Assembly (NCBI GenBank): GCA_964440985.1
Contig: CAYTWE010000001.1
Coordinates: forward strand, 16,875-80,874
DNA length: 64,000 nt
Direction of reading: 5' to 3'
DNA from: an uncultured Lentisphaeraceae bacterium
GTDB lineage: Bacteria > Verrucomicrobiota > Kiritimatiellia > RFP12 > UBA1067
Shown: positions 1,057 to 43,315 of the stretch, piece after piece
Position numbering within the stretch: position 1 is the first letter of the stretch
Layout of the letters: every line of letters starts with the position of its first letter
The notes under the pieces: generated by a model
Database searches by the model: none
Told to the model about the DNA's origin: nothing
Seen by the model: only the letters and a program-made list of their open reading frames with translations
Made by a program: the position numbers and the translations under genes

Positions 1057-1314
1057 ATACGCAACCTCCAGATTTATCCGCTTGCTGGTATGTCCGCCCA
1101 AACAGGACACACCTGAATGAATGCGTGTATGATATCACAGACCTTTCTAAAAATGCAATTACTGGCTTTTTTTTTTGCCACAAAACTGCGGTATGAGAGC
1201 AAGCGGCAATCATCCAAACCAGATGCGTCGGCATACGCTTCAGCGGCAAAGCGCCATTGCGGCAGCGTCCGCCTGACGAAACAAATGCGCACCGCAAAAT
1301 GCATACGCATTTTT

Positions 1315-1323
1315 TGGTATACT
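1315..1323 (+). promoter_or_regulatory. Extended -10 element TGGTATACT, 7 nt before the ATG of the HAD hydrolase gene (probable leaderless transcript)
   Basis: tttggtatacttctgccc ATG; TGnTATACT geometry; no SD in the 7-nt gap. Confidence 0.35.
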
Positions 1324-1330
1324 TCTGCCC

Positions 1331-2239: not shown

Positions 2240-2337
2240 AGTCGATTTGCATTGGCAAAGACATTTGCAGACAACCATTGCGTTGAACTGCGCGCCTGCG
2301 TGCCATGCACAGCAATCGATCTGTCAGAGGCGGTGCG

Positions 2338-2811: not shown

Positions 2812-2828
2812 GGATGCGTACTCCCCGT

Positions 2829-3914: not shown

Positions 3915-3922
3915 CGCGCAAA

Positions 3923-3931
3923 ATTATACCA
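3923..3931 (-). promoter_or_regulatory. Extended -10 TGGTATAAT, 8 nt upstream of the pyrC ATG (leaderless geometry)
   Basis: minus strand: gtgtgTGGTATAATtttgcgcgATG. Confidence 0.35.
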
Positions 3932-3958
3932 CACACAGTTGATGAATCAGATAGGGCT

Positions 3959-5728: not shown

Positions 5729-5770
5729 GCCCTCCTAAACTGCCGTTCGCGCGAACGGACACCTCATCAG

Positions 5771-6859
5771 TCAACTGCGGGAACTGCGCCATTCCCGTGC
5801 GCGGGCACGCGCCTCGCGGTCTATCTCAAAAATGCTCTCCGCCGTATCCGGCTCGTCAGTCGATGCCAGATACGAAACGTCTGCGACAAGTCTCGCGATG
5901 TCGCTGAACCTGATGTCTCCGGCAAGAAACCTCTCGACGGCAATCTCGTCGGCGGCGCTCAGTGCGGCAGGTCTTGCGCCGCCGGCCGCAAGCACATCCT
6001 TTACGAGCCGCAGAGCCGGAAACCGCGTCTCGTCCGGCTTCCTGAACGTAAGCGCACCGATGGCGGCAAGATCAAGCGTCTCGCGTTCCGCCGGAAAGCG
6101 TTTTGGCCATGAAAGCGCGTACTGTATCGGCACCCTCATGTCCGGCGGCGAAAGCTGCGCAAGCGTGGCTCCGTCACGGAACTCCACCAGCGAGTGGACG
6201 ATCGACTCCGGATGCACCACAACGTCTATCCTGTCCGCAGGAATGGAAAAGAGCCATCTGGCCTCTGCAATTTCAAAGCCCTTATTCATCATGCCGGCGG
6301 AATCGACCGTCACCTTCGGTCCCATCTTCCACCTTGGATGCCGCAAAGCCTGCGCCGGCGTGACGTCATCGAGGTTCGCCGGCGCATCAATGAACGGCCC
6401 TCCGCTCGCGGTCAGAATCAGACGCGATACGCTTTCGATTCCGGCACCGCCTTGCAGACACTGGAATATGGCGGAGTGTTCGGAATCAACCGGAACGATC
6501 GTCACGCCGGCGCGTTCTGCGGCCTTGGTGACGAGCGCACCGGCGGCCACAAGCACCTCCTTGGTGGCGAGAGCAACCGTCATCCCCTTGGAAATGGCGG
6601 CAAGCGTCGGCTTCAGTCCGGAAAGCCCCACTGTAGCGACAAGCGCGACGTCGGCCTCATTCTCCTCGATTGCCCGCAATGCACCGTCATCGCCGGAGTA
6701 GACCTTTGCGCCGAACTCCCGGCCAAGGACATCCGCTGCGGCGAGGTTGCTCCTCACCGCAAGCGCGACAATCTTAAACTCGTCCGGATGAGTGCGCACG
6801 ACATCGCACGCACTCGTGCCGATGGAGCCAGTCGCCCCAAGAAGGATTATCCTTTTCAA
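5771..6859 (-). CDS. dxr: 1-deoxy-D-xylulose 5-phosphate reductoisomerase
   Basis: N-terminus MKRIILLGATGSIGTS.. (NADPH-binding) and overall Dxr-like length of 362 aa. Confidence 0.9.
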   Translation of the reverse strand: MKRIILLGATGSIGTSACDVVRTHPDEFKIVALAVRSNLAAADVLGREFGAKVYSGDDGALRAIEENEADVALVATVGLSGLKPTLAAISKGMTVALATKEVLVAAGALVTKAAERAGVTIVPVDSEHSAIFQCLQGGAGIESVSRLILTASGGPFIDAPANLDDVTPAQALRHPRWKMGPKVTVDSAGMMNKGFEIAEARWLFSIPADRIDVVVHPESIVHSLVEFRDGATLAQLSPPDMRVPIQYALSWPKRFPAERETLDLAAIGALTFRKPDETRFPALRLVKDVLAAGGARPAALSAADEIAVERFLAGDIRFSDIARLVADVSYLASTDEPDTAESIFEIDREARARAREWRSSRS

Positions 6860-7764
6860 CCCTCTGCAGCCTTCATGAGACCCTTGAAGTAGCCGATGCT
6901 CTCGGCGACGTCAATCTCTTTGATCGCAGGCTTGAAGTCCTTGGGCGGGAACGATTCGTATTCAAGCGAACAGCATCCGTCATAGCCCACCGCCACAAGC
7001 TCCTTCACGACAGCCCAGAGATCCATTTCGCCACGCGGCATCGGAACGGCGAGGTTCTTCTTCGGATCAAACAGGACGTTCTTGATGTGCATATCGAAGA
7101 TGCGCGAGTGGAAACGGCGGACGGAATCGGCAGGATTCGCCTTTGCGCGGAAGTCATGCCCGATGTCAAGGCACAGCCCCATGCGCGGATCGAGATCCTT
7201 GACCATGTTCCATGACCTTTCACCGGTCGGGAACAGGTAAGGGATGTCCGGCCCGTGATTGTGGATTGCGTAGCGGATATCGTATTCCCGGCAAAGTTCA
7301 GAAAGAGCCTCGCACAGCGAACGGGACTCCGCCCGCGTCTTCTTGCCGCCGATCTCCTTCATCTCGAACGGCACTCCAACCACAGTGTTCACGCCAACCC
7401 GCTTGGCGAAGTCAAACGTCCGCTTCGCCTGCTCCTTGCTGTCCATGTAGACGGGGCCGAGCGCGTATCCGGTCACCCCGTGGTCGGCGCATTTCTGCTT
7501 GAACGCGGCGATATCCGCATCCGTGGCCGAAAACGGAAGATGGAAATCCTTGATGCAGAGATAATGCACATCGAGTTTCTTCAGAAGGGCAAGCGTTTCA
7601 TCGACCGTAAGCTGGTGGCATGAATATCCGGCCATTGCGAGCTTGAACTTGACCTTCCCGCAGGCAGATGCCGCCGGGCAGCCCTCAGTCCGGACAACGG
7701 ATTTGCAGCCGGCAGCAAGGACAGCCAGTGACGATGATGCGAAAAAACCGCGACGCGTAATCAT
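6856..7764 (-). CDS. Tat-secreted sugar-phosphate isomerase/epimerase (xylose-isomerase-like TIM barrel)
   Basis: Start reassigned to MITRRGFFASSSLAVLAAGC (twin-arginine signal) at 7764, with AGGAG 7 nt upstream. Body is AP-endonuclease/xylose-isomerase-like TIM. The 4-nt overlap with dxr is retained. Confidence 0.65.
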   Translation of the reverse strand: MITRRGFFASSSLAVLAAGCKSVVRTEGCPAASACGKVKFKLAMAGYSCHQLTVDETLALLKKLDVHYLCIKDFHLPFSATDADIAAFKQKCADHGVTGYALGPVYMDSKEQAKRTFDFAKRVGVNTVVGVPFEMKEIGGKKTRAESRSLCEALSELCREYDIRYAIHNHGPDIPYLFPTGERSWNMVKDLDPRMGLCLDIGHDFRAKANPADSVRRFHSRIFDMHIKNVLFDPKKNLAVPMPRGEMDLWAVVKELVAVGYDGCCSLEYESFPPKDFKPAIKEIDVAESIGYFKGLMKAAEG

Positions 7765-7906
7765 TTGCAATCTCCTTATGTTTGAAATGGAGTGATTATA
7801 TCCAATCCACCTGACAAAATCAACGCCGCACACCGGCAAGCGGCTGTGCGGAGATTGTGCGGGCGGTCGGTTCATGGCGATATGCGACGCACAGGATGGC
7901 TTTCCG

Positions 7907-8386
7907 TCATGGCATACGTGGCAGTTCAAGCCTGTGCGGACGGCGGCGTTTTGCGCCGTCCGCACATTCCTCCGCCCAGATGTCAAGCGCAGCGCATATG
8001 CGCTGCAACGTCCTGTCGCAATTCATCTTTCCGAGGGCGCATTCCCACACGACTATCAGATTCCATCCGTCGCTTCGCCAGGTCTCTTCGTTGCGGATGT
8101 CCCTGCGGACGTTCTTGGACCACTTCTCCATCCAAAACGCAACATTGCTCTTCGGCATTGTGGAATCGGCGCAGCCATGCCTGTGCCAGAAGCAGCCGCG
8201 CACATCGATTATTGTGCGGGCGCGCGGCACGACAATGTCCGGACGCCCGACAAAGCGCTTGTCGCATACGCGAAATCTCCAGCCTGCGGCGAATATGCGC
8301 CGCCGCACAAGCGTTTCCGGCTTCGTATCGCGCCCGCGTATGCGGCTCATTATCCTGCTGCGCTGCTCTGGCGTTATTCTGTCCAT
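7907..8386 (-). CDS. vsr: Very-short-patch-repair endonuclease
   Basis: RPDIVVPRARTIIDVRGCFWHRHGC matches the Vsr catalytic core (PD-(D/E)xK-like with the FWHxH motif); 159 aa. Confidence 0.85.
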   Translation of the reverse strand: MDRITPEQRSRIMSRIRGRDTKPETLVRRRIFAAGWRFRVCDKRFVGRPDIVVPRARTIIDVRGCFWHRHGCADSTMPKSNVAFWMEKWSKNVRRDIRNEETWRSDGWNLIVVWECALGKMNCDRTLQRICAALDIWAEECADGAKRRRPHRLELPRMP

Positions 8387-24082: not shown

Positions 24083-26116
24083 CTACTTCGTCAGCAGACG
24101 AAGCGCCCCCGTCGGACAGGCGTCAACGCACATATGGCAGTCTTTACATCCGGAAATCGCCTCCGGAGTGTTGAACTCCGGCTTGATCACCGTCTTGAAG
24201 CCGCGTCCCACAAGACCAAGCAGACCCTTCTTCGCCTTCTCTTCGCATACGCGGACGCAGAGGTTGCAGGTGATGCACTTGCGCTGGTTGCGTTCGATGC
24301 ACACGAGGGTGTTCTCCACGAATCCTGGGTGGAACGCCCCGCGCAGACGCTTCGTGTCGGTGCGGAGCAGATTTGCGTAGCGGATGAGCCTGCAGTCCGC
24401 ATAGTCATGGCATCCACATTCAAGACACCGCTTCGCCTCGGCCATGGCGACTTCCGGCGACAGCCCAAGGTTGACCTCCTTGAAGTCGTGTCTGCGCTCT
24501 TCCGCAGGACGCTGCGGCATCACCGCCCTCGCAATGCGCTCGCGGTCGGCAAAGTCCTTCTCGGTAAGGTCGCGTTCAGAGATGACAGGCTTGACCGGAC
24601 GGTACTCGCCACCGGCAAGATATGCGTCAACGGCAAGCGCGGCCTCGTTCGCCTGCGCAATCGCGCCGATCGCTATGCCTGCGCCCTTGTTCACGGTATC
24701 TCCGCAGGCAAACACGCCTGGCAACGTCGTCGCGAAGTTGCCTTCATCTGCGGCGATCGTTCCCTTGGGGGTCTGCGGAAGCGCCTCAAAGCCGGCAGGG
24801 TCGTTGCGCTGCCCGATGGCGGCGATGACGCTGTCGAGGGCAATCTCCTCGAACTTCCCCTCCACCGGCACAGGCTTGCGCCGTCCACGTTCATCCGGCT
24901 CACCAAGCTCCATCACCTGAAGGCGCATTCCGGACACCTTGCCGTCGCACCCGAGGATCTCGTCAGGAGCGCAGAGGAACTTGAACTTCACTCCCTCCTC
25001 CTCGGCCTCGGTGATCTCCACATCCTCTGCCGGCATCTCTTTGCGGGTGCGGCGATAGACGACAAACACCTCTTTTGCGCCAACGCGCACCGCCGTGCGG
25101 CAAGCATCCATAGCCGTGTTTCCGCCGCCGACAATGGCGACGCGCTCGCCTATGTCGGGAGCCTGTCCGGTCACGACTGCGCGGAGGAAGTCGATTCCGC
25201 CCCACACGCCTTTCAGGTCTTCGCCCTTCACGCGCATTCCGGTGGACTTCCATGCGCCGTTCGCGACGATCACGGCGTCATAGCGCGCCCTGAACTCGTC
25301 AAACCCCGCATCACGTCCGATCTTGAAGTTGTTGACAAACTTTACGCCGAGCGACGCTATGGCATCGGTCTCGGCCTTGAGGATCGCCTTCGGCAGACGG
25401 TATTCCGGAATGCCGTAGCGGAGCATTCCGCCCATCTCGGGCATCTGGTCGCAGACCGTGACATCGTGTCCGCGCTGCACAAGCTTAAACGCCGCAGTGA
25501 GGCCGGCAGGTCCGCCGCCGATGATTCCGACTTTCTTGCCGGTTGGAGCCGACACCTTGATGGGATGCTCACCGCCGTTCTCGCGCACCTGATCGGCCGC
25601 AAAGTATTTCAGCTGGGCGATGGAGATCGGCGCCTCGACAAGACGGCGGCGGCAGGCCTTCTCGCACGGATGCGGACATACCCGGCCGATCGCCGCCGGC
25701 AGAGGAAACGTCTCCTTGATCGTCGCCACCGCATCGGCGAAACGCCCTTCGGCTATCTCCTTCACATACTTCTGGCAGTCTGTGTGGGCAGGGCAATTCA
25801 GCTTGCACGGTCCCTGGCAGTCGCCGTCATGGTCGCCCATGAGCAGTTCCAGCGCAAGGCTGCGGGCCTTGAGTGCGCGTTCGCCGTTCGTGCGCACGAC
25901 CATGCCCTCGGAGACCTTCGTCGCGCAGGCGCGGAGCAGTTTCGGACACTTCTCGACCTCAACCACGCACACACCGCACGCGCCGTAGGGATTCATCTCC
26001 TTCATGAAGCAGAGATTCGGAATTTCGATTCCTGCCTTCTCCGCCGCCGCCAGGATCGTGGTTCCTTCCTCCACCGACACCTGGACGCCATCAATAGTCA
26101 AATTCACGGTTCCCAT
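24083..26116 (-). CDS. Multi-domain iron-sulfur flavoprotein: N-terminal [2Fe-2S] ferredoxin + His-ligated [4Fe-4S] (NuoG/HydA N-terminal type), fused to a GltD-like FAD/NAD(P)H oxidoreductase and a C-terminal 2x[4Fe-4S] ferredoxin (StnC/NfnB-like)
   Basis: MGTVNLTIDGVQV..CFMKEMNPYGACGVC (2Fe-2S); CQGPCKLNCP..CPHPCEKAC (Fe-S); two Rossmann motifs GIIGGGPAGLTAA and VAIVGGGNTAMD (GltD / pyridine-nucleotide-disulfide fold); C-terminal CIERNQRKCITCNLCVRVC..CKDCHMCVDACP. No [FeFe]-hydrogenase H-cluster motifs. Confidence 0.7.
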   Translation of the reverse strand: MGTVNLTIDGVQVSVEEGTTILAAAEKAGIEIPNLCFMKEMNPYGACGVCVVEVEKCPKLLRACATKVSEGMVVRTNGERALKARSLALELLMGDHDGDCQGPCKLNCPAHTDCQKYVKEIAEGRFADAVATIKETFPLPAAIGRVCPHPCEKACRRRLVEAPISIAQLKYFAADQVRENGGEHPIKVSAPTGKKVGIIGGGPAGLTAAFKLVQRGHDVTVCDQMPEMGGMLRYGIPEYRLPKAILKAETDAIASLGVKFVNNFKIGRDAGFDEFRARYDAVIVANGAWKSTGMRVKGEDLKGVWGGIDFLRAVVTGQAPDIGERVAIVGGGNTAMDACRTAVRVGAKEVFVVYRRTRKEMPAEDVEITEAEEEGVKFKFLCAPDEILGCDGKVSGMRLQVMELGEPDERGRRKPVPVEGKFEEIALDSVIAAIGQRNDPAGFEALPQTPKGTIAADEGNFATTLPGVFACGDTVNKGAGIAIGAIAQANEAALAVDAYLAGGEYRPVKPVISERDLTEKDFADRERIARAVMPQRPAEERRHDFKEVNLGLSPEVAMAEAKRCLECGCHDYADCRLIRYANLLRTDTKRLRGAFHPGFVENTLVCIERNQRKCITCNLCVRVCEEKAKKGLLGLVGRGFKTVIKPEFNTPEAISGCKDCHMCVDACPTGALRLLTK

Positions 26117-26131
26117 GACCTTCCGTCCCCC

Positions 26132-27889
26132 TTAGCCAACCACAACAGCACCAAACCGGCACGTCGCCGCGCAGGCGCCGCACTTGATGCATTTCGCCGC
26201 ATCGATCACATGCGGATTCTTGAGCGAACCGGAAATCGCGTTCGCAGGACACTTCCGCGCACACATCGTGCAGCCCTTGCACTTCGTCGCATCAATCGAA
26301 TACGTGCGAAGCGCAGCGCATTCGTGCGCGGGGCAACGGCGCTCGCGGATGTGGGCGTCATACTCGTCACGGAAGTAGCGGATAGTAGTGAGGACAGGGT
26401 TCGGGGCAGTCTGCCCAAGACCGCAAAGGGCGCCGTCCTTGATTCCGCGGCACAACTCTTCGAGCAGTTCCACGTCACCCTCGCGCCCCTGACCCTCTGT
26501 GATGCGCACGAGCGTCTCGTGAAGCCGCTTTGTGCCTATCCGGCAATGGACGCACTTGCCGCAGCTCTCCTTGGCCGTGAAGTCCAGGAAGAACCGCGCC
26601 ATGTTCACCATGCACGTACGGTCGTCCATCACCACCATGCCGCCGGACCCCATGATTGCGCCAGTTGCGCCGAGAGCCTTGTAGTCGATCTGCGTGTCGA
26701 GCAGGGACTCAGGGATGCATCCGCCCGAAGGACCACCCATCTGGACAGCCTTGAACCTGCGTCCGTCGCGCACTCCGCCGCCGATTCCGAAGATCACGTC
26801 GCGGAGAGTAAGCCCCATCGGCACCTCCACAAGACCGCCTCGGCGTATCTTGCCGGTGAGCGCAAACACCTTCGTTCCCTTTGAGAACTCCGTCCCCATC
26901 GCCGAGAACGCCGCACCGCCGTTCTGGATGATCCACGCGACGTTGGCGAACGTCTCCACGTTGTTGATGTTGGAGGGCTTCTCAGTAAATCCCTTCTCCG
27001 CGGGGAACGGCGGCTTGAGGCGGGGCATTCCACGGCTTCCCTCAAGAGACTCGATGAGAGCCGTCTCCTCGCCGCAAACGAACGCGCCGGCGCCGGCCTT
27101 GATGCGAAGTTCGCACGAGAAGTCCGAACCAAGTATGTTCTTTCCGAGCAGATTCGCCGCCGTTGCATCGCGAATTGCTTTCTCGAGACGCACAATCGCA
27201 AGCGGATACTCGGCACGCACATACACGAACGCCCTTGACGCACCGATCGCATAGGCGGCAATCAGCATTCCCTCGATGAGCGAATGGGGATCGCCCTCGA
27301 TGACGGCGCGATCCATGAACGCACCGGGGTCGCCCTCGTCGGCGTTGCAGATGAGGTACTTCTCGCTCCCGGCCGACTTCCTCGCAGCGTTCCACTTGAA
27401 CCACGTCGGGAATCCCGCACCGCCGCGTCCGGCAAGACCGGAGACCTTGATCTCCTCGATCACCTGCTCCGGCGACATCGGTTCGCCGCCGCTCTTTCCG
27501 AGAATCTTCGCGATGGCGCGATACCCATCCGCCGCACGGTACGATTCGAGCGACTCCGGATCGATCACGCCGCAGTGGCGAAGCGCTATGCGCGTCTGCT
27601 TTTCGAGGAACTGCCTGTCGTCATCCGAAATCTCAAGATCCTTGACACCGGAAAGATCGCCGCTCAAGGCAGCGGCGGCAATGCGCTCCGCATCCTTCTC
27701 CTGCACCCTCACAAGGCGGGCAGCCAGCGCGTCACCGTTGTAGAGATCCACAATCGGCTCAAGATAGCACATTCCGATGCATCCAGTGACGCCGATATCC
27801 TGCACCGTTCCGAGAGCTTCAAGAGCATTGCGCACCTTGCGCGCTCCGGCGGCGATTCCGCAGCTGCCTTCTCCTACCACAATTCTCAT
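26132..27889 (-). CDS. NuoF-like NAD(P)H-binding FMN/Fe-S subunit (HydB/HndC/NfnB-partner type) with an N-terminal thioredoxin-like [2Fe-2S] domain and C-terminal 2x[4Fe-4S]
   Basis: GLAGRGGAGFPTWFKW (NuoF FMN/NADH motif); ESCGKCVHCRIG (N3-type cluster); C-terminal CKGCTMCARKCP..CIKCGACAATC. Start set at MRIVVGEGSCG (ATG 27889), an ATGA overlap with the upstream gene. Confidence 0.85.
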   Translation of the reverse strand: MRIVVGEGSCGIAAGARKVRNALEALGTVQDIGVTGCIGMCYLEPIVDLYNGDALAARLVRVQEKDAERIAAAALSGDLSGVKDLEISDDDRQFLEKQTRIALRHCGVIDPESLESYRAADGYRAIAKILGKSGGEPMSPEQVIEEIKVSGLAGRGGAGFPTWFKWNAARKSAGSEKYLICNADEGDPGAFMDRAVIEGDPHSLIEGMLIAAYAIGASRAFVYVRAEYPLAIVRLEKAIRDATAANLLGKNILGSDFSCELRIKAGAGAFVCGEETALIESLEGSRGMPRLKPPFPAEKGFTEKPSNINNVETFANVAWIIQNGGAAFSAMGTEFSKGTKVFALTGKIRRGGLVEVPMGLTLRDVIFGIGGGVRDGRRFKAVQMGGPSGGCIPESLLDTQIDYKALGATGAIMGSGGMVVMDDRTCMVNMARFFLDFTAKESCGKCVHCRIGTKRLHETLVRITEGQGREGDVELLEELCRGIKDGALCGLGQTAPNPVLTTIRYFRDEYDAHIRERRCPAHECAALRTYSIDATKCKGCTMCARKCPANAISGSLKNPHVIDAAKCIKCGACAATCRFGAVVVG

Positions 27890-28374
27890 GATGCGGACTC
27901 CTCCTTGATCTTCCTGACGATCGCCCGCGCCTTTTCGGGCGTGAGGGAGCCGTACGCTGTTTCGTTGATCATCATGACCGGCGAAAGCGAGCAACAGCCG
28001 AGGCAAGCCACTTCCTTGAGCGAGAACAGTCCGTCCGCCGTCGTTTCGCCATCGCCTATGCCAAGCTCGTCCTGAAGCGCCTTGGCGATGGAATCCGCGC
28101 CGTTTACGTGACACGCCGTACCCTTGCACAGCATTATCAGGTTTTTGCCGACAGGCTGAAGCCTGAACTGGGTATAGAACGTCGCCACGCCCATCACCTT
28201 CGCAGGGCTTACCCCCACATGCTCCGCCACGGCGTAGATCACGTCCGTAGGCAGATAGCCATATATCTCCTGCGCCTTCTGCAGAATGGAGATCAGGGCA
28301 TGACCATCGCCCTCGAACTCCTTGAACACTGCATCAAGCCGCGTCAGATCGCTTTTTGCACACGTCTCACACAT
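27886..28374 (-). CDS. NuoE-like thioredoxin-fold [2Fe-2S] subunit (HydC/HndA type)
   Basis: CKGTACHVNGADSI...CLGCCSLSPVMMI gives the four Cys of 24-kDa-subunit-type ferredoxins; 162 aa. Confidence 0.85.
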   Translation of the reverse strand: MCETCAKSDLTRLDAVFKEFEGDGHALISILQKAQEIYGYLPTDVIYAVAEHVGVSPAKVMGVATFYTQFRLQPVGKNLIMLCKGTACHVNGADSIAKALQDELGIGDGETTADGLFSLKEVACLGCCSLSPVMMINETAYGSLTPEKARAIVRKIKEESAS

Positions 28375-28492: not shown

Positions 28493-28984
28493 TCAGCCCC
28501 ACATCCATGTAGCTGCCGAAACAATCAACGCGGAATACGCCGCCGACACCACGTCGTCGAACAGGACGCCATGCGCATTGTGTATGTTTCGGTCGATATA
28601 CCGCGCTCCAGGCAGCTTGATGGCGTCCAGTATGCGGAAGACCACGAACGCCGCCGCGAGTTGCCACCAGTGCGTGAAATTCACCGCAAACAGCGGCACG
28701 CAAAGATAGCCGACGATCTCATCGAGAACGAAGTGGCTTGGATCAGGATCGTTCCAGCGCTTCTGCGCCCACGGAGTGAGAATGTAGTGCACCGCGGAGA
28801 AGAACACCGCTCCCGCAAGGCACCAGATCCGGATGCACATGGGATCCCATTCGCGCCAGAACGCAAGTGCGTGCCACGCCAGACCGACAAGCGCCCCCAT
28901 GCTGCCGGGAACTATCGGCGAAAGCCCCAGCAAAAATCCGCTTCCAAGAAAAACCTTGATGAACTCCTTGGCGTCTGCCTTCAT
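28493..28984 (-). CDS. pgpA: Phosphatidylglycerophosphatase A
   Basis: LGSGFLLGLSPIVPGSMGAL, VLDEIVGYL and FRILDAIKLPGARYIDRN match PgpA signature regions. Start set at MKADAKEF (ATG 28984) with GAGGGAG 7 nt upstream. Confidence 0.75.
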   Translation of the reverse strand: MKADAKEFIKVFLGSGFLLGLSPIVPGSMGALVGLAWHALAFWREWDPMCIRIWCLAGAVFFSAVHYILTPWAQKRWNDPDPSHFVLDEIVGYLCVPLFAVNFTHWWQLAAAFVVFRILDAIKLPGARYIDRNIHNAHGVLFDDVVSAAYSALIVSAATWMWG

Positions 28985-29010
28985 CCATTTTCTCCCTCGC
29001 ATACCAAACA

Positions 29011-30057
29011 TCACGAACTGCGCCACACCCCATCGCCGGACATCTCCGCATCGTCCGTAACGGCTATCATCGGCCTTAAGGTGCGGCATCCAATCTCTCC
29101 AAGAGCCGCAGAGAGGCGCGAAAACTGGGCATCGTCCACATACGTGCCGACAATCGCCCCGCCTGAACCGGCGAACTTTGCGCTTGAGCCTGCATTTCTC
29201 GCCACGTTGACCATGCGCCTGTTTTCGTCCGACACGTCAAAGATTCTGTCCCTGAGATCGAAGTTTGCGTCTATGAGCGCCGGCAGTTCGCCAGCGCGTC
29301 CTGCAACAAGCGCATCGCGCCCTCGCTGGGCTATGTCCGCAAACTCCGTCATGGCGGAAAGGATGTCCGGCCGCCTCTCCTCAAACAGCCGCTTCACCTT
29401 CTTGTGCGCCTTGCCGGACTCTTCGGCGCGGTTGGGATCGTACGCCACATAGAGCTTCGGCAGGAGGGATACGTCAAGCCGCTCGTAGCGGCCATACCCG
29501 TGATTCTCGACGTATCTGCGGTCGAAGTCCATGAACACAAGGCCGTTGTACATCTGTATCACGCGATCCTGGTAGCCGCAGTTGATGCCAAGTTCGTCGC
29601 GCTCGGCCTCAAGGCACAGGGTGGGCGCATATTCCTCCGGAACCACGATGCCGTAGAACCTCATGAGCGCCTTCAGCATTGCCGTGCAGATTGCGCTTGA
29701 ACCGGAAAGCCCCACAAGGCGCGGCACGTTTATCCTGTACTCCGCCGTGAAGTTCCTCGCGGGTATGGCGATGCCACGCTCCATGCAGTACTCGAAGAAA
29801 AGCTTCGCGACGGCCTTCAGCATCCGTATGCCGCCGTAGTAGCCGAACGTGCGCAGATCGTGCACAAGCTGCTCCGGCGAATCGAACATGGCGTCGTCCA
29901 CCTCGCCCGGCACGAACCGCATCTTGGACGACTCGGTGAGCCGCAGATCCACGCCGAAGTTTGAGAACGCGAATGAAAGCGTCTTGCCGAAATATCCGTC
30001 GCTCGGATTCCCGAGAAGCCCTGCGCGGGCGAAGCTCCTAACCTTGACCGATTCCAT
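29011..30057 (-). CDS. GHMP-family sugar kinase of the glucuronokinase (GlcAK) subfamily
   Basis: RSFARAGLLGNPSDGYFGKTLS, GYYGGIRML, GLSGSSAI, GYQDRVIQMYNGLVFMDF and SSAKFAGSGGAIV track the conserved blocks of plant/bacterial glucuronokinases (as recalled from memory, not database-checked); 348 aa. Confidence 0.65.
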   Translation of the reverse strand: MESVKVRSFARAGLLGNPSDGYFGKTLSFAFSNFGVDLRLTESSKMRFVPGEVDDAMFDSPEQLVHDLRTFGYYGGIRMLKAVAKLFFEYCMERGIAIPARNFTAEYRINVPRLVGLSGSSAICTAMLKALMRFYGIVVPEEYAPTLCLEAERDELGINCGYQDRVIQMYNGLVFMDFDRRYVENHGYGRYERLDVSLLPKLYVAYDPNRAEESGKAHKKVKRLFEERRPDILSAMTEFADIAQRGRDALVAGRAGELPALIDANFDLRDRIFDVSDENRRMVNVARNAGSSAKFAGSGGAIVGTYVDDAQFSRLSAALGEIGCRTLRPMIAVTDDAEMSGDGVWRSS

Positions 30058-30799
30058 TGAACGCCTCCAGTGCCTTTAGATAGCCTTGCGGATTCCCGAT
30101 GTCCTGACGGTGTCCGCGATAGATGTAGCCGAACACCGGCTTCACAGCCATCATGCGGCGGATCGCGTCCGTCAGCTGTATCTCGCCGCCGTGTCCAGGC
30201 GTCTGCGTGGCAAGCAGACCAAAGATGTCCCCGTCAAGCAGATAGCGTCCGGCCACCGCCAGATTGCTCGGCGCATCCTCCTGCCTCGGCTTCTCGACGA
30301 GATCGACGAGCCGCGCCGACGCCCCGGCGGCAAGCGCGGCGTGGTCTTGCTCCACAGCGGCGATGCCGTACCGGCTCACCCTCTCTACCGAAACGCGCTC
30401 CATGCCGATTACGCTTGCACCGCCATTGGCCTCGGACACCGCCACCATTTCCCGGCTTGGGTTCGGGCCGGTCACAAGTGCATCGCCAAGCAGTATCAGC
30501 GTCCGTTCCGACGCGAAATCCGCCGCCTGCAGAACGGCGTGTCCCAGCCCATTCTGCTCACGCTGATAGACGAACCTGATGTCCACGCCGAAGTCCGGAC
30601 TGCCCTCGAAATATCTGCGTATTATCTCCTTGCCCTCGGATATGACCATCACCACGCAGTCCGCACCGGCCTCCACGGCCTCCTCGACTATGCAGTGGAT
30701 TGCGGGTTTCGCTCCTATCGGCAGCATCTCCTTCGGCACAACCCTCGTGACGGGCAGAAAACGTGTGCCCAACCCGGCGGCCGGTATTATCGCAGTCAT
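30038..30799 (-). CDS. Sugar-1-phosphate nucleotidylyltransferase (GalU/RmlA fold; NDP-sugar pyrophosphorylase)
   Basis: MTAIIPAAGLGTRFLPVTRVVPKEMLPIG (G-x-G-T-R-x-x-P-x-T-K motif). Start at ATG 30799 with GGAGGG upstream. One-nt gap to the upstream gene; 20-nt overlap with the kinase. Confidence 0.75.
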   Translation of the reverse strand: MTAIIPAAGLGTRFLPVTRVVPKEMLPIGAKPAIHCIVEEAVEAGADCVVMVISEGKEIIRRYFEGSPDFGVDIRFVYQREQNGLGHAVLQAADFASERTLILLGDALVTGPNPSREMVAVSEANGGASVIGMERVSVERVSRYGIAAVEQDHAALAAGASARLVDLVEKPRQEDAPSNLAVAGRYLLDGDIFGLLATQTPGHGGEIQLTDAIRRMMAVKPVFGYIYRGHRQDIGNPQGYLKALEAFNGIGQG

Positions 30800-30800
30800 C

Positions 30801-32072
30801 TCAGTCGTTCCCTCCGTCGCTCGCGAAGATCTTGGTGTCACCCACCCGAACACCATCCTCAAGGCCAAGCTCCTCCTCAAGCTTCTCGCCCGGACGTATC
30901 CCCGTGAAAACGATGTCTATGTCCTTGTACGGTCGCCACCCTGCCTCCTTTATCATGTCCTCCGCAAGCTTGAGTATGCCTATCGGCTCTCCCATGTCAA
31001 GCGTGTACACCTTCCCGGACTCAAGCGCGGCGGCGGAAAGCACAAGGCTTACCGCCTCCTGTACGCTCATGAAGTAGCGCGTCATCCGTCGGTCCGTCAC
31101 TGTCACAGGTCCGCCGGCGGCGATCTGTTCGCGCCAAAGCTCCACCACGCTCCCGGAACTTCCAAAGACGTTGCCGAATCTGACTACGGTGAACCCGGCA
31201 GCCAGAACGAACTTCTCGGCTTCACGCTTAGTGCGCCCCATGACGCTGCGCGGATGCACCGCCTTGTCGGTGGAGATGAACACGAACCGCTCCACGCCTG
31301 CATCCTTCGCGATCTTGACAAGCCTCTCCGTGGCGGCGGTGTTGTTGCGGAAGCCCTCCTCCGGATTCATCTCGACCATCGGCACATGCTTGTATGCCGC
31401 CGCATGAAGCACGATGTCGGGCTTCCACTCATCGAACAGCTCCCGCATCTTCGCCTCGTCAGACACATCGACCATGAGCGGAACGCATCGTCCGTCTCCG
31501 CCCATCTCATGGTCAATCCTGTACAGGACGTTCTCGCCTCGCTCGACCATCAGCACCTTCGCCGCACCGGCGCAGGCAACCTGCCTCACGATCTCGCTGC
31601 CGATAGTTCCGCCGGCCCCGGTCACAAGAACCGTGCGGCCGGCAAGGACAGGCGGCACCGGAAGGCTTGCCGCCGGTGTCGATGGACATACGGCAACCCT
31701 GTGCGCCTGGCGGAGAAACCTTACGCCGAGCGTTCCGAAGAACGCAAATACGGCATCTATCATCGTGACGGAATATGGCGGTCTCGCCCACGAAAGACCT
31801 GCGTTCGGCATCAGGGCGCGCATCCAGAGCAGCAGCGCCGCCGCAATGCCGAACGCCGCCACGTACTTCGGGATGTCCTTCGCGGCGACGCGCCAGCGCC
31901 ATGCGCGATTGAGACCGAACGCGGCAAGCATCGCCACCTGTGCCACGCATACGAATATCGACGAAATGCAGGCCGAACGCCATCCGGCGAGCGGCTCCTC
32001 AAAATTCATCCGTACGCAGAACGCCGCAGCATATGCGGCAAGAAGCACAGCGATGTCTATAACGGCGATCAT
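30801..32072 (-). CDS. Membrane-anchored polysaccharide biosynthesis protein CapD / NDP-sugar 4,6-dehydratase (PglF/WbpM type)
   Basis: N-terminal TM segments, then VLVTGAGGTIGSEIVRQ (Rossmann), YKHVPMVE (YxxxK) and STDKAV, typical of the CapD/PglF/FlaA1 family; 423 aa. Confidence 0.75.
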   Translation of the reverse strand: MIAVIDIAVLLAAYAAAFCVRMNFEEPLAGWRSACISSIFVCVAQVAMLAAFGLNRAWRWRVAAKDIPKYVAAFGIAAALLLWMRALMPNAGLSWARPPYSVTMIDAVFAFFGTLGVRFLRQAHRVAVCPSTPAASLPVPPVLAGRTVLVTGAGGTIGSEIVRQVACAGAAKVLMVERGENVLYRIDHEMGGDGRCVPLMVDVSDEAKMRELFDEWKPDIVLHAAAYKHVPMVEMNPEEGFRNNTAATERLVKIAKDAGVERFVFISTDKAVHPRSVMGRTKREAEKFVLAAGFTVVRFGNVFGSSGSVVELWREQIAAGGPVTVTDRRMTRYFMSVQEAVSLVLSAAALESGKVYTLDMGEPIGILKLAEDMIKEAGWRPYKDIDIVFTGIRPGEKLEEELGLEDGVRVGDTKIFASDGGND

Positions 32073-37858: not shown

Positions 37859-39529
37859 TCATTCACGACAGTCCGGGGGGCCAGACACTTCGCGCACACC
37901 GGGTGGCGGCTTGACGGTCTTGACAATCCTGTCGCCTTCACGCCGCCATTCGGCGACAATCGGCCCGTGCGGCGTCGGAACGCTACCTTTTGCGAAATCG
38001 ACTGATGACGGCGGAACTGGTTCGAACGCGAATGTCGCGTAGCCGGGCGAAAGCGGTCGCACTCCAAGCACATACGACGTAAGCAGCCCGGCGACCGCCG
38101 TATCCGGATGAGCCTCATCGCCCCATCCGGGCATCGCCACATCCATGCACTCGTACGTCGTGCGGCATCCCTTCCACTCCGGAGATATCACCGTGAAGAA
38201 GCCATGCTCCTCTATCGACTTCAGCGCAAGGTCGCCAAATCCGAACTCAAAGCGTCCACGCGCCGACAGCGCCTGAAACTTGCCGTGCCAGTTGCGCGGA
38301 AGCGCTGAGGCAAGCGTGGCCGCCTCACGTCTGTCGACGAAACGGACGGCAAGCGCAAGGGCATTCGCCTCAGTGGAGTATGTTCCATCCTCAATCGAGA
38401 ACGCAAACGCCCGGCCGTCTTCGCATCTGAAATCGCGTTTCGTCACAGAGGCGATGCGTTCCGCCTCACTTCGCCAAATCTTCGCATCCGCATCATGCCC
38501 CAACCACTCCGCAATCTCCGCAGAGTCGGAAAGCGCCTTCCAAAGCAGGATTTGCATATAGCTGCGGCGATGTAGCGACGTTGCGCCGAACCGGAGAGCC
38601 CCTGCGTTCTTGCAAGTCTCCTTCCGCTGAATGAACACCCCGTCGCGCACATTGCGCAGGAGATATCCGATTAGGCGCCGCAAATTCGGAAACAGATCGC
38701 GCATCAGCGCCATATCGCCGGTGTACAGCGCATAGTTGCGCATCACCGGCGCAAACCACGCGGCGAATTCATCCGACGCAAACGGTCCGTATTCGCCCGA
38801 TGCCGGCGACACTTTCGCCTCAGGGTACGGACAGGCCTGAACATAGCCTTCCGGCGTCTGCGCCAGCGCAAGCATTCGCAATGAACCCGGCATATACGGC
38901 GAATCGGATGCATACGCCGCGTACATGTTGAGATCCGCCCACCAGAGATCGCCGCTCCACACAAGCCTGTCGCGCTTTGCGCCATCAGAAAGATACGCGC
39001 ACAGCGTCTCCTCGCCGCGCTTCGGTATGGCAGCAAGCTGACATGTGCGCACACTTGCGCGCCACAGCGCATTCAGACGTTCATCTGAGCAGGAAAACGA
39101 GCCTTCAACCGGCTCTTCCGAATACGTGCATCTGTTCTCGAACCTGAAATCATCAATGTCAACGGACGCGCCTGGCGTATCTACGGCCACGCGCACATAG
39201 CGGACAAGCCCTTGCTGGAATCTCGCCCTGCATACGCCACCCGTCGTCACCGTGAACAGCTCAAAGCGGTCGGTAGATGACGGCGGAATCGGCAGCGGCA
39301 CATCCTTGCCAAGATAATCCGCACGTGTATCGTCCCAGAAGTCGCCCCTCTCCGTCATGCGATCAGGATGGTTGGCGTACGATATGCGCACAACCGCGCC
39401 TGACGCCCCGACAGTCACGGGCGACGCCTTGAACACTGCATAGCCTGCGGTTGCATCAGGGCCGAAATCAATGATATGCGGATGCCCATGCGACACCAGC
39501 GCTGCCAACAACAATCCTCCACAAAACAC
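37859..39529 (-). CDS. Secreted six-hairpin glycoside hydrolase, alpha-L-rhamnosidase-like (second copy in the window)
   Basis: N-terminal hydrophobic signal; RDRLVWSGDLWWADLNMY region resembling the GH78 catalytic (alpha/alpha)6 domain; 556 aa. Family not verified. Confidence 0.45.
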   Translation of the reverse strand: MFCGGLLLAALVSHGHPHIIDFGPDATAGYAVFKASPVTVGASGAVVRISYANHPDRMTERGDFWDDTRADYLGKDVPLPIPPSSTDRFELFTVTTGGVCRARFQQGLVRYVRVAVDTPGASVDIDDFRFENRCTYSEEPVEGSFSCSDERLNALWRASVRTCQLAAIPKRGEETLCAYLSDGAKRDRLVWSGDLWWADLNMYAAYASDSPYMPGSLRMLALAQTPEGYVQACPYPEAKVSPASGEYGPFASDEFAAWFAPVMRNYALYTGDMALMRDLFPNLRRLIGYLLRNVRDGVFIQRKETCKNAGALRFGATSLHRRSYMQILLWKALSDSAEIAEWLGHDADAKIWRSEAERIASVTKRDFRCEDGRAFAFSIEDGTYSTEANALALAVRFVDRREAATLASALPRNWHGKFQALSARGRFEFGFGDLALKSIEEHGFFTVISPEWKGCRTTYECMDVAMPGWGDEAHPDTAVAGLLTSYVLGVRPLSPGYATFAFEPVPPSSVDFAKGSVPTPHGPIVAEWRREGDRIVKTVKPPPGVREVSGPPDCRE

Positions 39530-39542
39530 GACATCCTCCGTT

Positions 39543-41135
39543 TCAGTTTATGGCAACGTCCAACGTCGTCCCCTTCGTGAATGCGTACTGGAAGCGTCCG
39601 TTGTCCGATGCGACAAATGATTTCCCGGTGGCGGGAGCGAACACGCCAAGAAGGTTCTGCGTATACAGAAACGCAGACTCCCTGAACGCATAGGTGCTCC
39701 ACTCATGTCTTGGCTTCGCGAGCGGATTCGCGCATGGCGCATCCTCCGGCGACATCCCCGGCATGAAAAACGGCCTTGCGAGAAGCAGCACAACACCTTC
39801 ACCCTTCGCCGCCTCACATCTGAAATACGCATCCTGCCCGTTATCCACATCGTGTCCGGAATTGTCTATCCACACGAAGCGTACGCCATCCTCCACCCAC
39901 GCCGCCATGCGCTCCCGCCTGACGAAATCCCCTGGCCGGAGACGAAGTCTGCGCGGACGCGGATACGACGAGGAAACGATGCGAACCGCCGCCCCCTCCA
40001 CGGCAAACGACTTCGCGCCACGGCAACGCGACGGGAACACGCGATCACACTGTTCGCCGCCGCATCCGATGCGAAACACCTTCGTCTGGCTTCGGTAGGG
40101 CTTGACGGCAACAACGTCAATCAGCATCGACGCCGCAAGATTGATGCGGTTGAAACGATACATCGGCCGCAGGTTCTCCGGCCCGTTCAATCCATAGCTC
40201 TGCGTGATGACGTGCCGTACGCCGTTCTCCATCACATCGGCATCTAAATGCGCATGGCCGGCAAACGAACCCGCAATCCTGATGCGCCCTGTCTTTGCGT
40301 GGCGTTCAACGACGGCAAGCGCATCCGCAAGTCCGGGCGTAGTGCACGGCTCCGCGCTTGACCGCCAAAGGCCAAGATACGGATGCAGCGTCGCGTGAGA
40401 AAGGATAACCGCAGTCCAGCCATCCTTCAACTCTCCAAGGCTCCTGTCAAGGAAATCGACCTGACGCTGCGTCACGCCTACCCACGTCTTCCCCTTGGTG
40501 TTCCCGACGTTCAATTCAGACGTGTTGAGAAATATCACGCGGGTCATCTTGCGCGGGAAATCCCACAGGCCGTATCCGTCCACTGCATAGCGAAAACCCG
40601 AAGCGGACTCAAGCGCTGAATTGAAGAACCGGAAATAGTCGTCGGACGACTGGTGCCAGATGACGTTTCCGAGGTCGTGATTCCCGACAACATGAAGCGA
40701 CGGAACCGAGAACGTGCCGTATATGCGCCTCTCGCAATCCATTACCGCCCTTCCGAACGCCTCCGGCTCATCCTTCCACGTCTTCCTTCCGCGATCAAGA
40801 CCTATGTCGCCGAGATTGGCGATGAAGTCGGCGCCGAAGATTTTTGCCGCCGCATCTAAGGCATACTGGTGCACCATCCCGTCGCCCCAGTCCGGCGATC
40901 CGCCAAGCGACACGGTACCGGAATGGACATCGCTGACAACCGGGAACACAAGTGTCTCGTCAGCCCCTTTCCATTCGCAGAACCTTGCCTTCGCAAGCCT
41001 TATCTCACGCATCATCCAGTCGGGAATCGCGGGAGCGGCAGGCTTCCCTGCTTGCGATGCCAAAGCATTGGAGCCGAGCGCGACCGCCGCACCGGCGCCG
41101 GCCATCCCGATAACGGCCCTTCTTGTCATGTTCAT
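39543..41135 (-). CDS. Tat-secreted calcineurin-like metallophosphoesterase
   Basis: MNMTRRAVIGMAGAGAAVALGSNALA (twin-arginine signal); VVSDVHSG, LGDIGLD and VVGNHD metallophosphatase motifs. Start ATG 41135 with AAGGA upstream; ATGA overlap with the upstream gene. Confidence 0.7.
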   Translation of the reverse strand: MNMTRRAVIGMAGAGAAVALGSNALASQAGKPAAPAIPDWMMREIRLAKARFCEWKGADETLVFPVVSDVHSGTVSLGGSPDWGDGMVHQYALDAAAKIFGADFIANLGDIGLDRGRKTWKDEPEAFGRAVMDCERRIYGTFSVPSLHVVGNHDLGNVIWHQSSDDYFRFFNSALESASGFRYAVDGYGLWDFPRKMTRVIFLNTSELNVGNTKGKTWVGVTQRQVDFLDRSLGELKDGWTAVILSHATLHPYLGLWRSSAEPCTTPGLADALAVVERHAKTGRIRIAGSFAGHAHLDADVMENGVRHVITQSYGLNGPENLRPMYRFNRINLAASMLIDVVAVKPYRSQTKVFRIGCGGEQCDRVFPSRCRGAKSFAVEGAAVRIVSSSYPRPRRLRLRPGDFVRRERMAAWVEDGVRFVWIDNSGHDVDNGQDAYFRCEAAKGEGVVLLLARPFFMPGMSPEDAPCANPLAKPRHEWSTYAFRESAFLYTQNLLGVFAPATGKSFVASDNGRFQYAFTKGTTLDVAIN

Positions 41136-43315
41136 TTCCGGACATCCTTTCCGCAAGCGTTTCCGAGAATTATACCGGCAAGCCGCTCACGCGCCTTGCG
41201 TACCGCTTCCGGATTGCGCGTGAAGTCGGTCATCGAGCGGATGAGCGTTTTCGATATTTCCTTTACGGCTGCCGGATCTTTCGCGGCGGCCATCACAAGA
41301 TAATCGTAGTCCTCCGAGCCGTCGCGCAGATTCGCCAGGCGGATTGACGGCAGGATGCCATTCTTTCCGGGATATGCAAGCACCCCGTCCCCAGGCGCCT
41401 GAAGTCCGCTCCATGTATTCCATGCGGGGAACCACACATCCCGCTCATCAAGTTTCGGCTGGCTGCCGCTCCAGTAGTTTACGTTCCAGAAGAGAAACCC
41501 GTCTGAGCGATACAGATGCGTGAACCACGGGATGAGCCGCCCCTCCACCGTCGGATTCTCGTATGACGAGAAGTTGCAGTACGGATGGAACGGAGAGCAG
41601 CACGTGTACCACCAGACCTGACGCCCCATCCTGCGAAGCTCATCCGAGACGTCTTCGCGATAGATTGCGGTGAGAGGGGTGTGCCAGTCCGTTGCGGTCC
41701 AGAACGGAGAGACCTTGTCAGGATGCTGAACGCGATCTCTGTACATGTACGCGCTCGTGATGAGCGGCAGATCGGGATATACACCCTTAAGTCTTCTCCA
41801 CATCCTGTCGATGCCCTCGTAATAATCTGCTTCACGCTCGTCAAAACCGTAGATGCAGCATCCGTCAAGAAGGTTCCTTTTTCTGAGTTCCGCAACATAC
41901 GGCGTTAACGTGTTTGTCACGTACGTAAAAAACCCCTCCGAGAACACATCCTTCTTGGAGCCGTACACCACCCACGCCTGCCCCTTCGGCGGTGGCGGCG
42001 CAAGGTTGAGCAGGTTCACGTGCCGCTGCCCACGCGACTTGGCGTATGCGATATCCTCGATATCCGGAGGTGACGTGCGCGATATGTCAGTCCAGTCAAG
42101 CCTGTGGTCAAGCATCATGTCCATCGCCTCGCGACGCCGAACCTCAAACGATTCGGGGTAATGCCGCTTGATGAAACCATCCATGCAAGCGAACATCGCC
42201 GGAAAGGAAAACATCTTCGGAAGCGCAAAATTCCACACCTCCACGGCAACCGGAACCGTCTGCGAAAAACCGTCAGCGGCAACGAACTTCGCTTCGCACC
42301 TGTACGTCCCCGGCTTGGCGTCGCGTCCGGCGAAAACGGTAAGCCAGATGCCTTGCGTCGCTCCTTTCCTGACATCAACCGGCGCGGCAGGCAGCAGCAC
42401 CTCCGGAATCCACTTCTCGTGAGGATCAACGCCGCAAGGATGCGGCGCATACTCCGGACGGCGGGCAAGGTATCCCAACCGTTCCCACGAAATCGTGCCG
42501 TTGAGACGGTTCCCGGACGCATCCACCAGCGGCGTCAACTCTACGTTCAGCTCCTTCAGTTCACGCTCCGCACCTGTCGTGACAAGCACCTGCGCCGATT
42601 CGCGCTCGCCCTTCGCCAATCGCAGACACACGCTTGCCGGCGTTCGCCTGTCCTCATCCGCTGGGAACGTAAGCGGCGTCACCTTGCGCATTGAATCAGC
42701 CGTCCAGAGGCACACGCCATCCGGCGGCAAAGACGACACCGGCCCACATTTCGCCGCCCCGTCCGCAATCGGCTCATAGACAAACCTGCCAGCAGAGTGA
42801 AGCGACCTGGCGGGATACGTCACAAGCATCTCATCGCTCTCAGAGAACGGCCGTCCCGTCATGCGCCGCGCAGACAGCTGTACATGTCCGGGATCGCGAC
42901 GCTCAAGGAACACATTGCGGAAAAGAACCTCGCCGCCCGGCGCAAACGGGTCGCGGTAGAGGGCATAGAGCTTGATTTTCCGGACCGGAGAGCCGGGATA
43001 GTGCACAGATCCGGATTTCTCCCAGCCGTGCGTCCCCTCGGTGAACGTCGCAAGCAGTTTGTACGTAAACGTGCCGTCAGCGTGCTCGACATCCACATAG
43101 AGACAGTACTCCTTCGCGCAGGCATTCACCGCCTTCGATTCGCCGCCGAACCATATCGGTGAGCAGTCAGGAGATTCATACGTCCGTTCAATCACCGCCT
43201 TGGTGACTGATGGAGCAAAGGTTGCCGCAGAATCCGAAGCGATGCCGGACAGTGCTGCAGCTGCGGCAAGCGCGACAACGGCCGTCATCGTCTTCATATT
43301 GCAGCAACCCTTCAT
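41132..43315 (-). CDS. Secreted hypothetical protein, possibly a glycoside-hydrolase-like (DUF4091-type) enzyme
   Basis: Signal peptide (MKTMTAVVALAAAAALSG); 727 aa; Trp/Tyr-rich C-terminal half (FWNVNYWSGSQ..WFPAWNTWSG). No catalytic motif identified with confidence. An alternative start is at ATG 43297. Confidence 0.4.
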   Translation of the reverse strand: MKGCCNMKTMTAVVALAAAAALSGIASDSAATFAPSVTKAVIERTYESPDCSPIWFGGESKAVNACAKEYCLYVDVEHADGTFTYKLLATFTEGTHGWEKSGSVHYPGSPVRKIKLYALYRDPFAPGGEVLFRNVFLERRDPGHVQLSARRMTGRPFSESDEMLVTYPARSLHSAGRFVYEPIADGAAKCGPVSSLPPDGVCLWTADSMRKVTPLTFPADEDRRTPASVCLRLAKGERESAQVLVTTGAERELKELNVELTPLVDASGNRLNGTISWERLGYLARRPEYAPHPCGVDPHEKWIPEVLLPAAPVDVRKGATQGIWLTVFAGRDAKPGTYRCEAKFVAADGFSQTVPVAVEVWNFALPKMFSFPAMFACMDGFIKRHYPESFEVRRREAMDMMLDHRLDWTDISRTSPPDIEDIAYAKSRGQRHVNLLNLAPPPPKGQAWVVYGSKKDVFSEGFFTYVTNTLTPYVAELRKRNLLDGCCIYGFDEREADYYEGIDRMWRRLKGVYPDLPLITSAYMYRDRVQHPDKVSPFWTATDWHTPLTAIYREDVSDELRRMGRQVWWYTCCSPFHPYCNFSSYENPTVEGRLIPWFTHLYRSDGFLFWNVNYWSGSQPKLDERDVWFPAWNTWSGLQAPGDGVLAYPGKNGILPSIRLANLRDGSEDYDYLVMAAAKDPAAVKEISKTLIRSMTDFTRNPEAVRKARERLAGIILGNACGKDVRK

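Follow-up and report, generated by a model that had tools for sequence, protein, structure and literature searches.

Which reactions are encoded by a sugar kinase and a nucleotidyltransferase whose genes overlap in a gut bacterium, and do the genes packed around them belong to the same pathway? This question is raised by a locus at 28.4-32.7 kb of a 64,000-nucleotide (nt) stretch from an uncultured Lentisphaeraceae bacterium (GCA_964440985.1, contig CAYTWE010000001.1; the whole stretch is hereafter called the window), where five genes are transcribed from the minus strand in the order pyrE, capD-like, NTP-transferase, kinase and pgpA. Close homologues are found in Kiritimatiellia metagenome-assembled genomes from ruminants, horses and humans, and the source organism belongs to a Kiritimatiellia lineage of gut or rumen. 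The usual assumption for bacteria is that uridine diphosphate glucuronate (UDP-GlcA) arises by oxidation of UDP-glucose; to our knowledge, biochemical proof of glucuronate (GlcA) salvage to UDP-GlcA comes from plants alone, with the kinase step also shown in fish. An earlier, sequence-only reading of the locus had proposed that a glucuronokinase-family kinase and a pyrophosphorylase feed a nucleotide sugar to a membrane-bound CapD-like dehydratase which acts in envelope glycan formation, and had assigned pgpA to the same operon. According to the present analysis, the NTP-transferase and the kinase probably constitute a two-gene salvage module which turns free GlcA into UDP-GlcA, while the remaining genes are not supported as their partners. 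The kinase, as a bacterial orthologue of eukaryotic glucuronokinase, would phosphorylate GlcA at C1 at the expense of ATP, giving glucuronate 1-phosphate (GlcA-1-P), and a shortened GalU-type uridylyltransferase would then convert GlcA-1-P and, presumably, UTP into UDP-GlcA and diphosphate (PPi). In this way, a fermentative gut anaerobe could recycle GlcA that is liberated from glycans of host or plant origin, and the route would bypass the NAD-dependent UDP-glucose dehydrogenase step.

Family membership of the kinase

The kinase (348 amino acids (aa), minus strand, 30057-29011; Pfam GHMP_kinases_N, 44.2 bits) is co-linear with plant glucuronokinase 1 (P0142, 366 aa) and shares 44% identity with it over 307 residues (pairwise E 5e-85; E 7.7e-72 in the library search). 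Similarly, the kinase half of a carp protein annotated as glucuronokinase with putative uridyl pyrophosphorylase (GKUP; P0148, 619 aa) is matched at about 40% identity with an E value of 2e-69. Plant and fish kinases are themselves 48% identical, and the window kinase is hence about as near to both of them as they are to each other. Of 1.84 billion cluster representatives searched, 471 are related to the kinase at E<=1e-30; these include the two named clusters P0142 and P0148 as well as protist proteins of the fused type, and many metagenomic members of the family carry the JGI label 'glucuronokinase'.

At the level of motifs, FARAGLLGNPSDGYFGK, GYYGG, VGLSGSSAI and GYQDRV...MDF are all present as quoted in the sequence-only reading, and only the last of the quoted motifs had to be corrected, as it reads SAKFAGSGGA and not ASKF. 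The N-terminal motif GNPSDGYFGK fits the family pattern GNPSDxYxG[KR], which is shared by the plant, fish, ichthyosporean and Chromera proteins and by most bacterial sequences in the comparison, with one bacterial member failing the strict pattern. Both the GHMP ATP-binding motif II (PRLVGLSGSSA) and motif III (GSGGA) are likewise present, and PxxxGL(S/A)GSSA, GxQDR and GSGGA are common to the compared family. A peptide sequenced from purified lily glucuronokinase, VGFLGNPSDVYFGR, matches the GNPSDxYxG[KR] motif, and homologues in 'a few bacteria', namely Solibacter, Dyadobacter and Verrucomicrobium, had already been noted in the same study (PMC2823444).

Other GHMP subfamilies were rejected as identities for the kinase. 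The best match among NCBIfam models is HddA (NF049969), with 42.3 bits against a cut-off of 600, and galactokinase (24 bits) and mevalonate kinase (36 bits) also remain far below their cut-offs. HddA is thus the closest curated bacterial family, yet a remote one, with an E value of 7e-10 to the solved structure 4n3o compared to 1e-72 to 1e-85 for the glucuronokinases. Comparison with galactokinase and HddA had been suggested as a check by the sequence-only reading; the kinase clusters with neither, and the assignment to the glucuronokinases made there holds. Because full-length identity and motifs match those of anchored glucuronokinases while other GHMP subfamilies score far lower, membership of the kinase in the glucuronokinase subfamily (GlcAK, EC 2.7.1.43) can be considered solid. 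Plant and zebrafish glucuronokinases are specific for GlcA (PMC2823444, PMC3938481), and by analogy with these enzymes GlcA is the likely substrate of the window kinase.

On the structural side, the best solved relative by sequence is a heptose kinase (4n3o, E 7e-10), and no structure of the glucuronokinase family was found in the PDB. Based on a shallow alignment, AlphaFold2 modelled the kinase with a mean pLDDT of 66.5, and the Foldseek matches of this model in the PDB reflect the generic GHMP fold at no more than 18% identity; little weight was placed on it.

Pairing and fusion with a GalU-like nucleotidyltransferase

Directly upstream of the kinase lies the gene of a GalU-like sugar-1-phosphate nucleotidyltransferase (253 aa, minus strand, 30799-30038; Pfam NTP_transferase, 109 bits), whose stop overlaps the kinase start by 20 nt, as read directly off the sequence. 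The junction (30038-30068, minus strand) contains a GGAGG at 30068-30064, 7 nt before the kinase ATG at 30057. With the overlap and this motif inside the upstream gene, translation of NTP-transferase and kinase is probably coupled. Overlaps of about 14-20 nt also occur in the closest relatives (L005, L007, L009 and L023). A 280-aa open reading frame (ORF) with TTG start was rejected as an over-extension of the NTP-transferase, since public calls on identical contigs begin at MTAII.

A survey covered 80 species-level genome loci with kinase homologues, drawn from at least 593 matching stretches, in which the window's four neighbours were searched for. In 48 of the 80 loci, the kinase has a GalU-like gene as its immediate neighbour in the same orientation, and in two further ones such a gene lies within 3 kb. 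In eight loci, which include all closest gut-Kiritimatiellia relatives, it is located upstream and overlaps the kinase as in the window, and in the other 40 it follows immediately downstream (Verrucomicrobiota, Planctomycetota, Bacteroidota, Spirochaetota, Calditrichota and others). Overall, paired genes are found in Kiritimatiellia, Lentisphaeria, Verrucomicrobiota, Planctomycetota, Bacteroidota, Spirochaetota, Acidobacteriota and Calditrichota. Clustering of all flanking ORFs in the 80 loci gave no second conserved neighbour. Transporters, glucuronidases, UXS, Ugd and glycosyltransferases were specifically sought as conserved neighbours of the kinase in these loci and none was found, only scattered genes of the short-chain dehydrogenase/reductase (SDR) type (L078, L080, L085); the neighbour clusters that did emerge represent housekeeping functions such as ATP synthase, DnaK, PolX, sulfatase, alanine racemase and MutY, among others.

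In some lineages, both domains reside on one polypeptide. The metagenomic protein P0123 is a fusion of a GalU-like domain with a kinase domain, of which the former is 38% (E 2e-46) and the latter 48% identical to the window proteins. With P0123 as query, at least nine further fusion clusters were matched, giving at least ten in all; they are encoded on contigs of prokaryotic type, several of them 150-400 kb long. One fusion gene concludes an exopolysaccharide (exosortase/EPS) cluster (L085, GCA_041745295.1, JBGTJE010000053.1, positions 1-7902), which also comprises genes for a GT4 glycosyltransferase, a UDP-GlcNAc 2-epimerase, a UDP-sugar dehydrogenase, exosortase EpsH and an SDR epimerase/dehydratase.

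Since the pairing is conserved and fusions exist, consecutive action of window kinase and NTP-transferase is well supported by these comparative data and constitutes the best-supported conclusion of the analysis. The kinase-plus-pyrophosphorylase combination suggested by the sequence-only reading is thereby strengthened.

Some individual loci deserve mention in their own right. In L078 (11887-12840) and L080 (459-2495), the pair lies flush with SDR epimerase/dehydratase genes, one of which is UXS/ArnA-like in L080, and in L079 (11913-12785) an RmlA gene adjoins the pair; these neighbours hint at downstream use of the UDP-sugar. A contig filed under Limosilactobacillus gorillae (L005, CAVJWR010000003.1, 9232-11555) carries NTP-transferase, kinase and pgpA in the order of the window with 72-85% aa identity, and is probably mis-binned in that assembly.

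Sugar pocket and likely substrate of the nucleotidyltransferase

The NTP-transferase reaches 223 bits against the GalU model TIGR01099 and thus stays below the equivalog cut-off of 326.8. Its best solved relatives are the UDP-glucose pyrophosphorylases (UGPases) YngB of Bacillus subtilis (7b1r) and GalU of Helicobacter pylori (3juk), with E 6e-49. Like its gut-Kiritimatiellia relatives, the enzyme lacks the helical insertion of GalU after beta-3 as well as the C-terminal extension. When the positions contacting UDP-glucose in YngB (PMC7961091) were mapped through alignments, A13, G14, K28, E29, Q105, G110, D133, G172, E191 and K192 were all found to be kept in the window enzyme, and they are near-invariant over 39 kinase-linked enzymes, bar two truncated or masked rows. 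The linked enzymes preserve the contacts to uridine, Mg2+, diphosphate and, by the backbone, glucose, and differ at one position.

This position directly follows the Mg-binding Asp. YngB (Asp134), three Burkholderia UGPases and the Pseudomonas enzyme (PaUGP, D131) carry a glucose-contacting Asp there, whereas the window enzyme has Ala107. Among the 39 linked enzymes, Thr occurs 27 times, Ala ten times, Ser and Cys once each and Asp never; the ten fusion domains (P0123, P0297-P0303, P0309 and P0324) display Cys or Ser and likewise no Asp. The importance of the residue is illustrated by the D131A mutant of the Pseudomonas enzyme, which is almost inactive; at the same time, Asp is not universal in GalU, as the Klebsiella enzyme has Val at this position (PMC11796359). 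Because of this Val, the Thr/Ala/Ser/Cys state is to be regarded as a lead and not as a rule. The alignments nevertheless point to a sugar pocket unlike that for plain glucose 1-phosphate (Glc-1-P) and mark the position as a candidate specificity determinant. Loss of an acidic side chain from the pocket would be expected if a carboxylated sugar must fit.

Chances are about even that the linked and fused GalU-type enzymes are genuine GlcA-1-P uridylyltransferases which are marked by Thr, Ala, Cys or Ser at this position and of which the 253-aa protein of gut Kiritimatiellia represents a minimal form. Several points weigh against the proposed salvage of GlcA by the pair. Judged by E value as a proxy, the GalU equivalog cut-off is approximately reached by 24 of the 39 linked enzymes, and the kinase-linked enzyme of Dyadobacter scores 317 bits against YngB, a bona fide UDP-glucose pyrophosphorylase; the partner may therefore be an ordinary GalU with Glc-1-P as main substrate. 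Neither searches nor literature yielded a GalU-type enzyme using GlcA-1-P, and the literature searches revealed no characterized bacterial glucuronokinase, assay or operon. Moreover, one RmlA that was tested failed to use GlcA-1-P (PMC8606822), and pyrophosphorylase activity of zebrafish GKUP was not demonstrable (PMC3938481). Finally, the kinase is without adjacent nucleotidyltransferase in 25 of the 80 surveyed loci, all with full flanks. A fish-type pyrophosphorylase domain was sought beside bacterial kinases that do not have a GalU-like neighbour, and none was found.

Some of these data would also suit a housekeeping GalU which makes UDP-glucose and is placed beside the kinase for co-regulation of UDP-glucose and UDP-glucuronate, with another enzyme handling GlcA-1-P. 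The scores near the GalU cut-off, the conservation of all UDP-glucose contact residues but one, and the genomes in which the kinase stands alone speak for such a role. Covalent fusion in at least ten protein clusters, in contrast, argues for consecutive reactions, and both gene orders are maintained; a housekeeping role is considered distinctly improbable.

Another possibility is that the same combination of kinase and GalU-like enzyme serves a different sugar, e.g., galacturonate, glucose, galactose, xylose or an amino or deoxy sugar, and delivers its UDP form. The bacterial members of the kinase family are uncharacterized, and most partners resemble canonical GalU. In addition, a route of promiscuous bacterial GalK and a uridylyltransferase is known to salvage UDP-xylose (PMC11267548), so that kinase/uridylyltransferase salvage is not restricted to GlcA. 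Against a different sugar stand the closeness of the window kinase to GlcA-specific plant and fish enzymes (44% and about 40%, with 48% between those two), the retention of all family motifs and the replacement of Asp in every one of the 39 linked and ten fused domains inspected. On balance, a sugar other than GlcA is considered unlikely.

One of the nearest counterparts is the plant system, in which UDP-GlcA is made via myo-inositol oxygenase and salvage, with glucuronokinase and UDP-sugar pyrophosphorylase (USP) acting together. Arabidopsis GlcAK1 (At3g01640, EC 2.7.1.43) and USP share with the window the kinase family, its motifs and the logic of a kinase followed by a pyrophosphorylase. 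The plant partner, however, is a eukaryotic UDPGP-family enzyme of about 600 aa, whereas that of the window is a short bacterial GalU-type nucleotidyltransferase, and the plant genes are unlinked while those of the window are adjacent and overlapping. Plant GlcA originates from myo-inositol oxygenase; an anaerobic gut bacterium would presumably take it from the environment.

Zebrafish GKUP is likewise related through its kinase domain (about 40%) and carries its nucleotidyltransferase N-terminal of the kinase, which corresponds to the gene order of the window (PMC3938481); homologues of this type exist in fish, frogs, tunicates, fungi and protists. Its N-terminal domain belongs to another nucleotidyltransferase subfamily, as shown by a BLASTP E value of only 0.34 between the window enzyme and the fish domain, and was not found beside the bacterial kinases. 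Since the eukaryotic GKUP fusions use a different nucleotidyltransferase, coupling of kinase and nucleotidyltransferase arose more than once. In the prokaryotic fusions, by comparison, both halves are homologous to the window proteins and follow the nucleotidyltransferase-then-kinase order; they differ in forming one polypeptide with a linker of about 30 aa instead of two overlapping genes, and in having Cys or Ser where the window has Ala.

Relative to GalU and YngB themselves, the window enzyme retains uridine, Mg and diphosphate binding and most glucose contacts, and departs from them in its subthreshold score, the missing insertion and extension and the exchange at Asp134. HddA/HddC and Bacteroides Fkp resemble the window in that an anomeric GHMP kinase is paired or fused with an NTP-transferase. 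The former are a D-glycero-D-manno-heptose 7-phosphate kinase and its guanylyltransferase, and Fkp is a fucokinase/GDP-fucose pyrophosphorylase; neither GmhA nor GmhB was seen among the annotated genes of the 64-kb window. Taken together, we regard the pair not as a novel type of system but as a bacterial member of a known salvage system, with an unusual GalU-type partner that takes a minimal form in this lineage.

Hundreds of bacterial species possess the conserved pair, in some lineages as a fusion, which suggests that UDP-GlcA can be reached by a second route. It would allow glycan degraders of gut and environment to recycle GlcA released from plant xylans, glucuronides or host glycosaminoglycans at no cost of NAD+. 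Should the GalU-type partners indeed be GlcA-1-P uridylyltransferases, GlcA would be salvaged to UDP-glucuronate by a widespread and hitherto uncharacterized bacterial pathway, extending over the PVC superphylum, Bacteroidota and further phyla, and a functional UDP-GlcA pyrophosphorylase, which was not demonstrable for animal GKUP, would be at hand. From an applied point of view, the pair represents a compact two-enzyme candidate for in vitro production of UDP-GlcA from cheap GlcA, and it could serve as the positive control absent from the zebrafish study.

Neighbouring genes and the wider window

The pair is embedded in a string of ten co-directional minus-strand genes (37380-28493) which are separated by overlaps or gaps of a few bases and encode Era, a TPR protein, ExbB, ExbD, a 170-aa protein with no Pfam hit, PyrE, the CapD-like protein, the NTP-transferase, the kinase and PgpA. 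Orotate phosphoribosyltransferase PyrE (32702-32088, minus strand; TIGR01367 pyrE_Therm, 157.9 bits, above the cut-off of 150.25) precedes the CapD-like gene (32072-30801, minus strand) by 15 nt. The CapD-like gene ends with TGA, followed by a single base and the ATG of the NTP-transferase, as read directly off the sequence. The kinase stop is separated by 26 nt from the start of pgpA (phosphatidylglycerophosphatase A, 163 aa, minus strand, 28984-28493 within the ORF 29089-28493; Pfam PgpA, 100.8 bits). The same boundaries are given by public gene calls on four contigs with identical kinase, and direct reading of the sequence bears out the earlier gene positions, the 20-nt overlap, the 1-nt gap and pgpA as the next gene. 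Profiles of GC1/2/3 are uniform over the five genes and identify the minus-strand frames as coding; long plus-strand ORFs at the locus were dismissed as shadows on the basis of these patterns. Behind pgpA, a promoter-like site (28440-28411) is located in a 118-nt gap before hydrogenase-type genes, and no terminator-like site was found in this gap.

Proteins of the PglF/WbpM type commonly comprise about 600 aa, while the CapD-like protein of the window measures 423 aa, with four predicted membrane segments leading almost straight into the catalytic domain. An intermediate domain and a portion of the C-terminus, as found in its larger counterparts, seem to be missing. Four hydrophobic 19-residue segments within residues 2-120 form the predicted membrane anchor, and the Rossmann motif GAGGTIG at 152 and Thr-Asp-Lys (TDK) at 268 are both present. 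The Polysacc_synt_2 domain (PF02719) scores 309.7 bits, and the protein matches PglF of Campylobacter jejuni (WlaL, 5bju) from residue 140 onwards with E 3e-62 and the TDK catalytic motif aligned. The description as a membrane-anchored 4,6-dehydratase of PglF type given by the sequence-only reading is therefore right.

It is a different matter whether this enzyme modifies the product of the pair for an envelope glycan, with pgpA in the same operon, as the sequence-only reading had suggested. In favour of such a four-gene pathway, the co-directional genes almost touch each other, the arrangement recurs on identical contigs and SDR genes sometimes flank the pair elsewhere (L078, L080 and L085). 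The neighbour survey, however, gave no locus out of 80 with a CapD homologue adjacent to the kinase and just one (L005) with pgpA; the nearest relatives instead have a gene for ClpX, ribulose-phosphate epimerase Rpe, a Dus-like protein or UvrA upstream of the pair. The PglF-type family acts on UDP-GlcNAc. 4,6-Dehydration requires a C6 hydroxyl, which is absent from UDP-GlcA, and is hence chemically impossible on a uronate. Furthermore, no glycosyltransferase or glycan cluster was found in the 64-kb window, the remainder of which consists of housekeeping genes and scattered glycoside hydrolases. Finally, because an equally tight string joins the unrelated functions of Era, the TPR protein, ExbB/ExbD and PyrE, the spacing carries no functional information here. 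A common pathway of all four genes is thus very improbable, and the CapD-like gene, pgpA and pyrE are not supported as functional partners of the kinase/NTP-transferase pair, being co-directional neighbours in a housekeeping string. For annotation, this serves as a caution against deducing a common pathway from close, operon-like packing of genes in this genome.

Further afield in the window, three minus-strand genes follow downstream of pgpA (24083-28374). One of them encodes a NuoE-like protein with a 2Fe-2S thioredoxin-like fold, and the products of the other two (about 665 and 677 aa) look like Fe-S flavoproteins by eye; these features are reminiscent of an electron-bifurcating hydrogenase or NADH-dependent oxidoreductase. 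At 6856-7986 (minus strand), a xylose-isomerase-like TIM-barrel protein with a weak match to D-mannonate dehydratase UxuA (29.5 bits) is encoded, which could belong to a uronate catabolic route competing for glucuronate. Glycoside hydrolase genes are scattered among housekeeping genes at 3959-5728, 37859-39529, 41132-43315 and 59249-60643; they encode two rhamnosidase-like six-hairpin proteins, a GH123-like protein and an alpha-L-fucosidase, which fits a glycan-degrading lifestyle.

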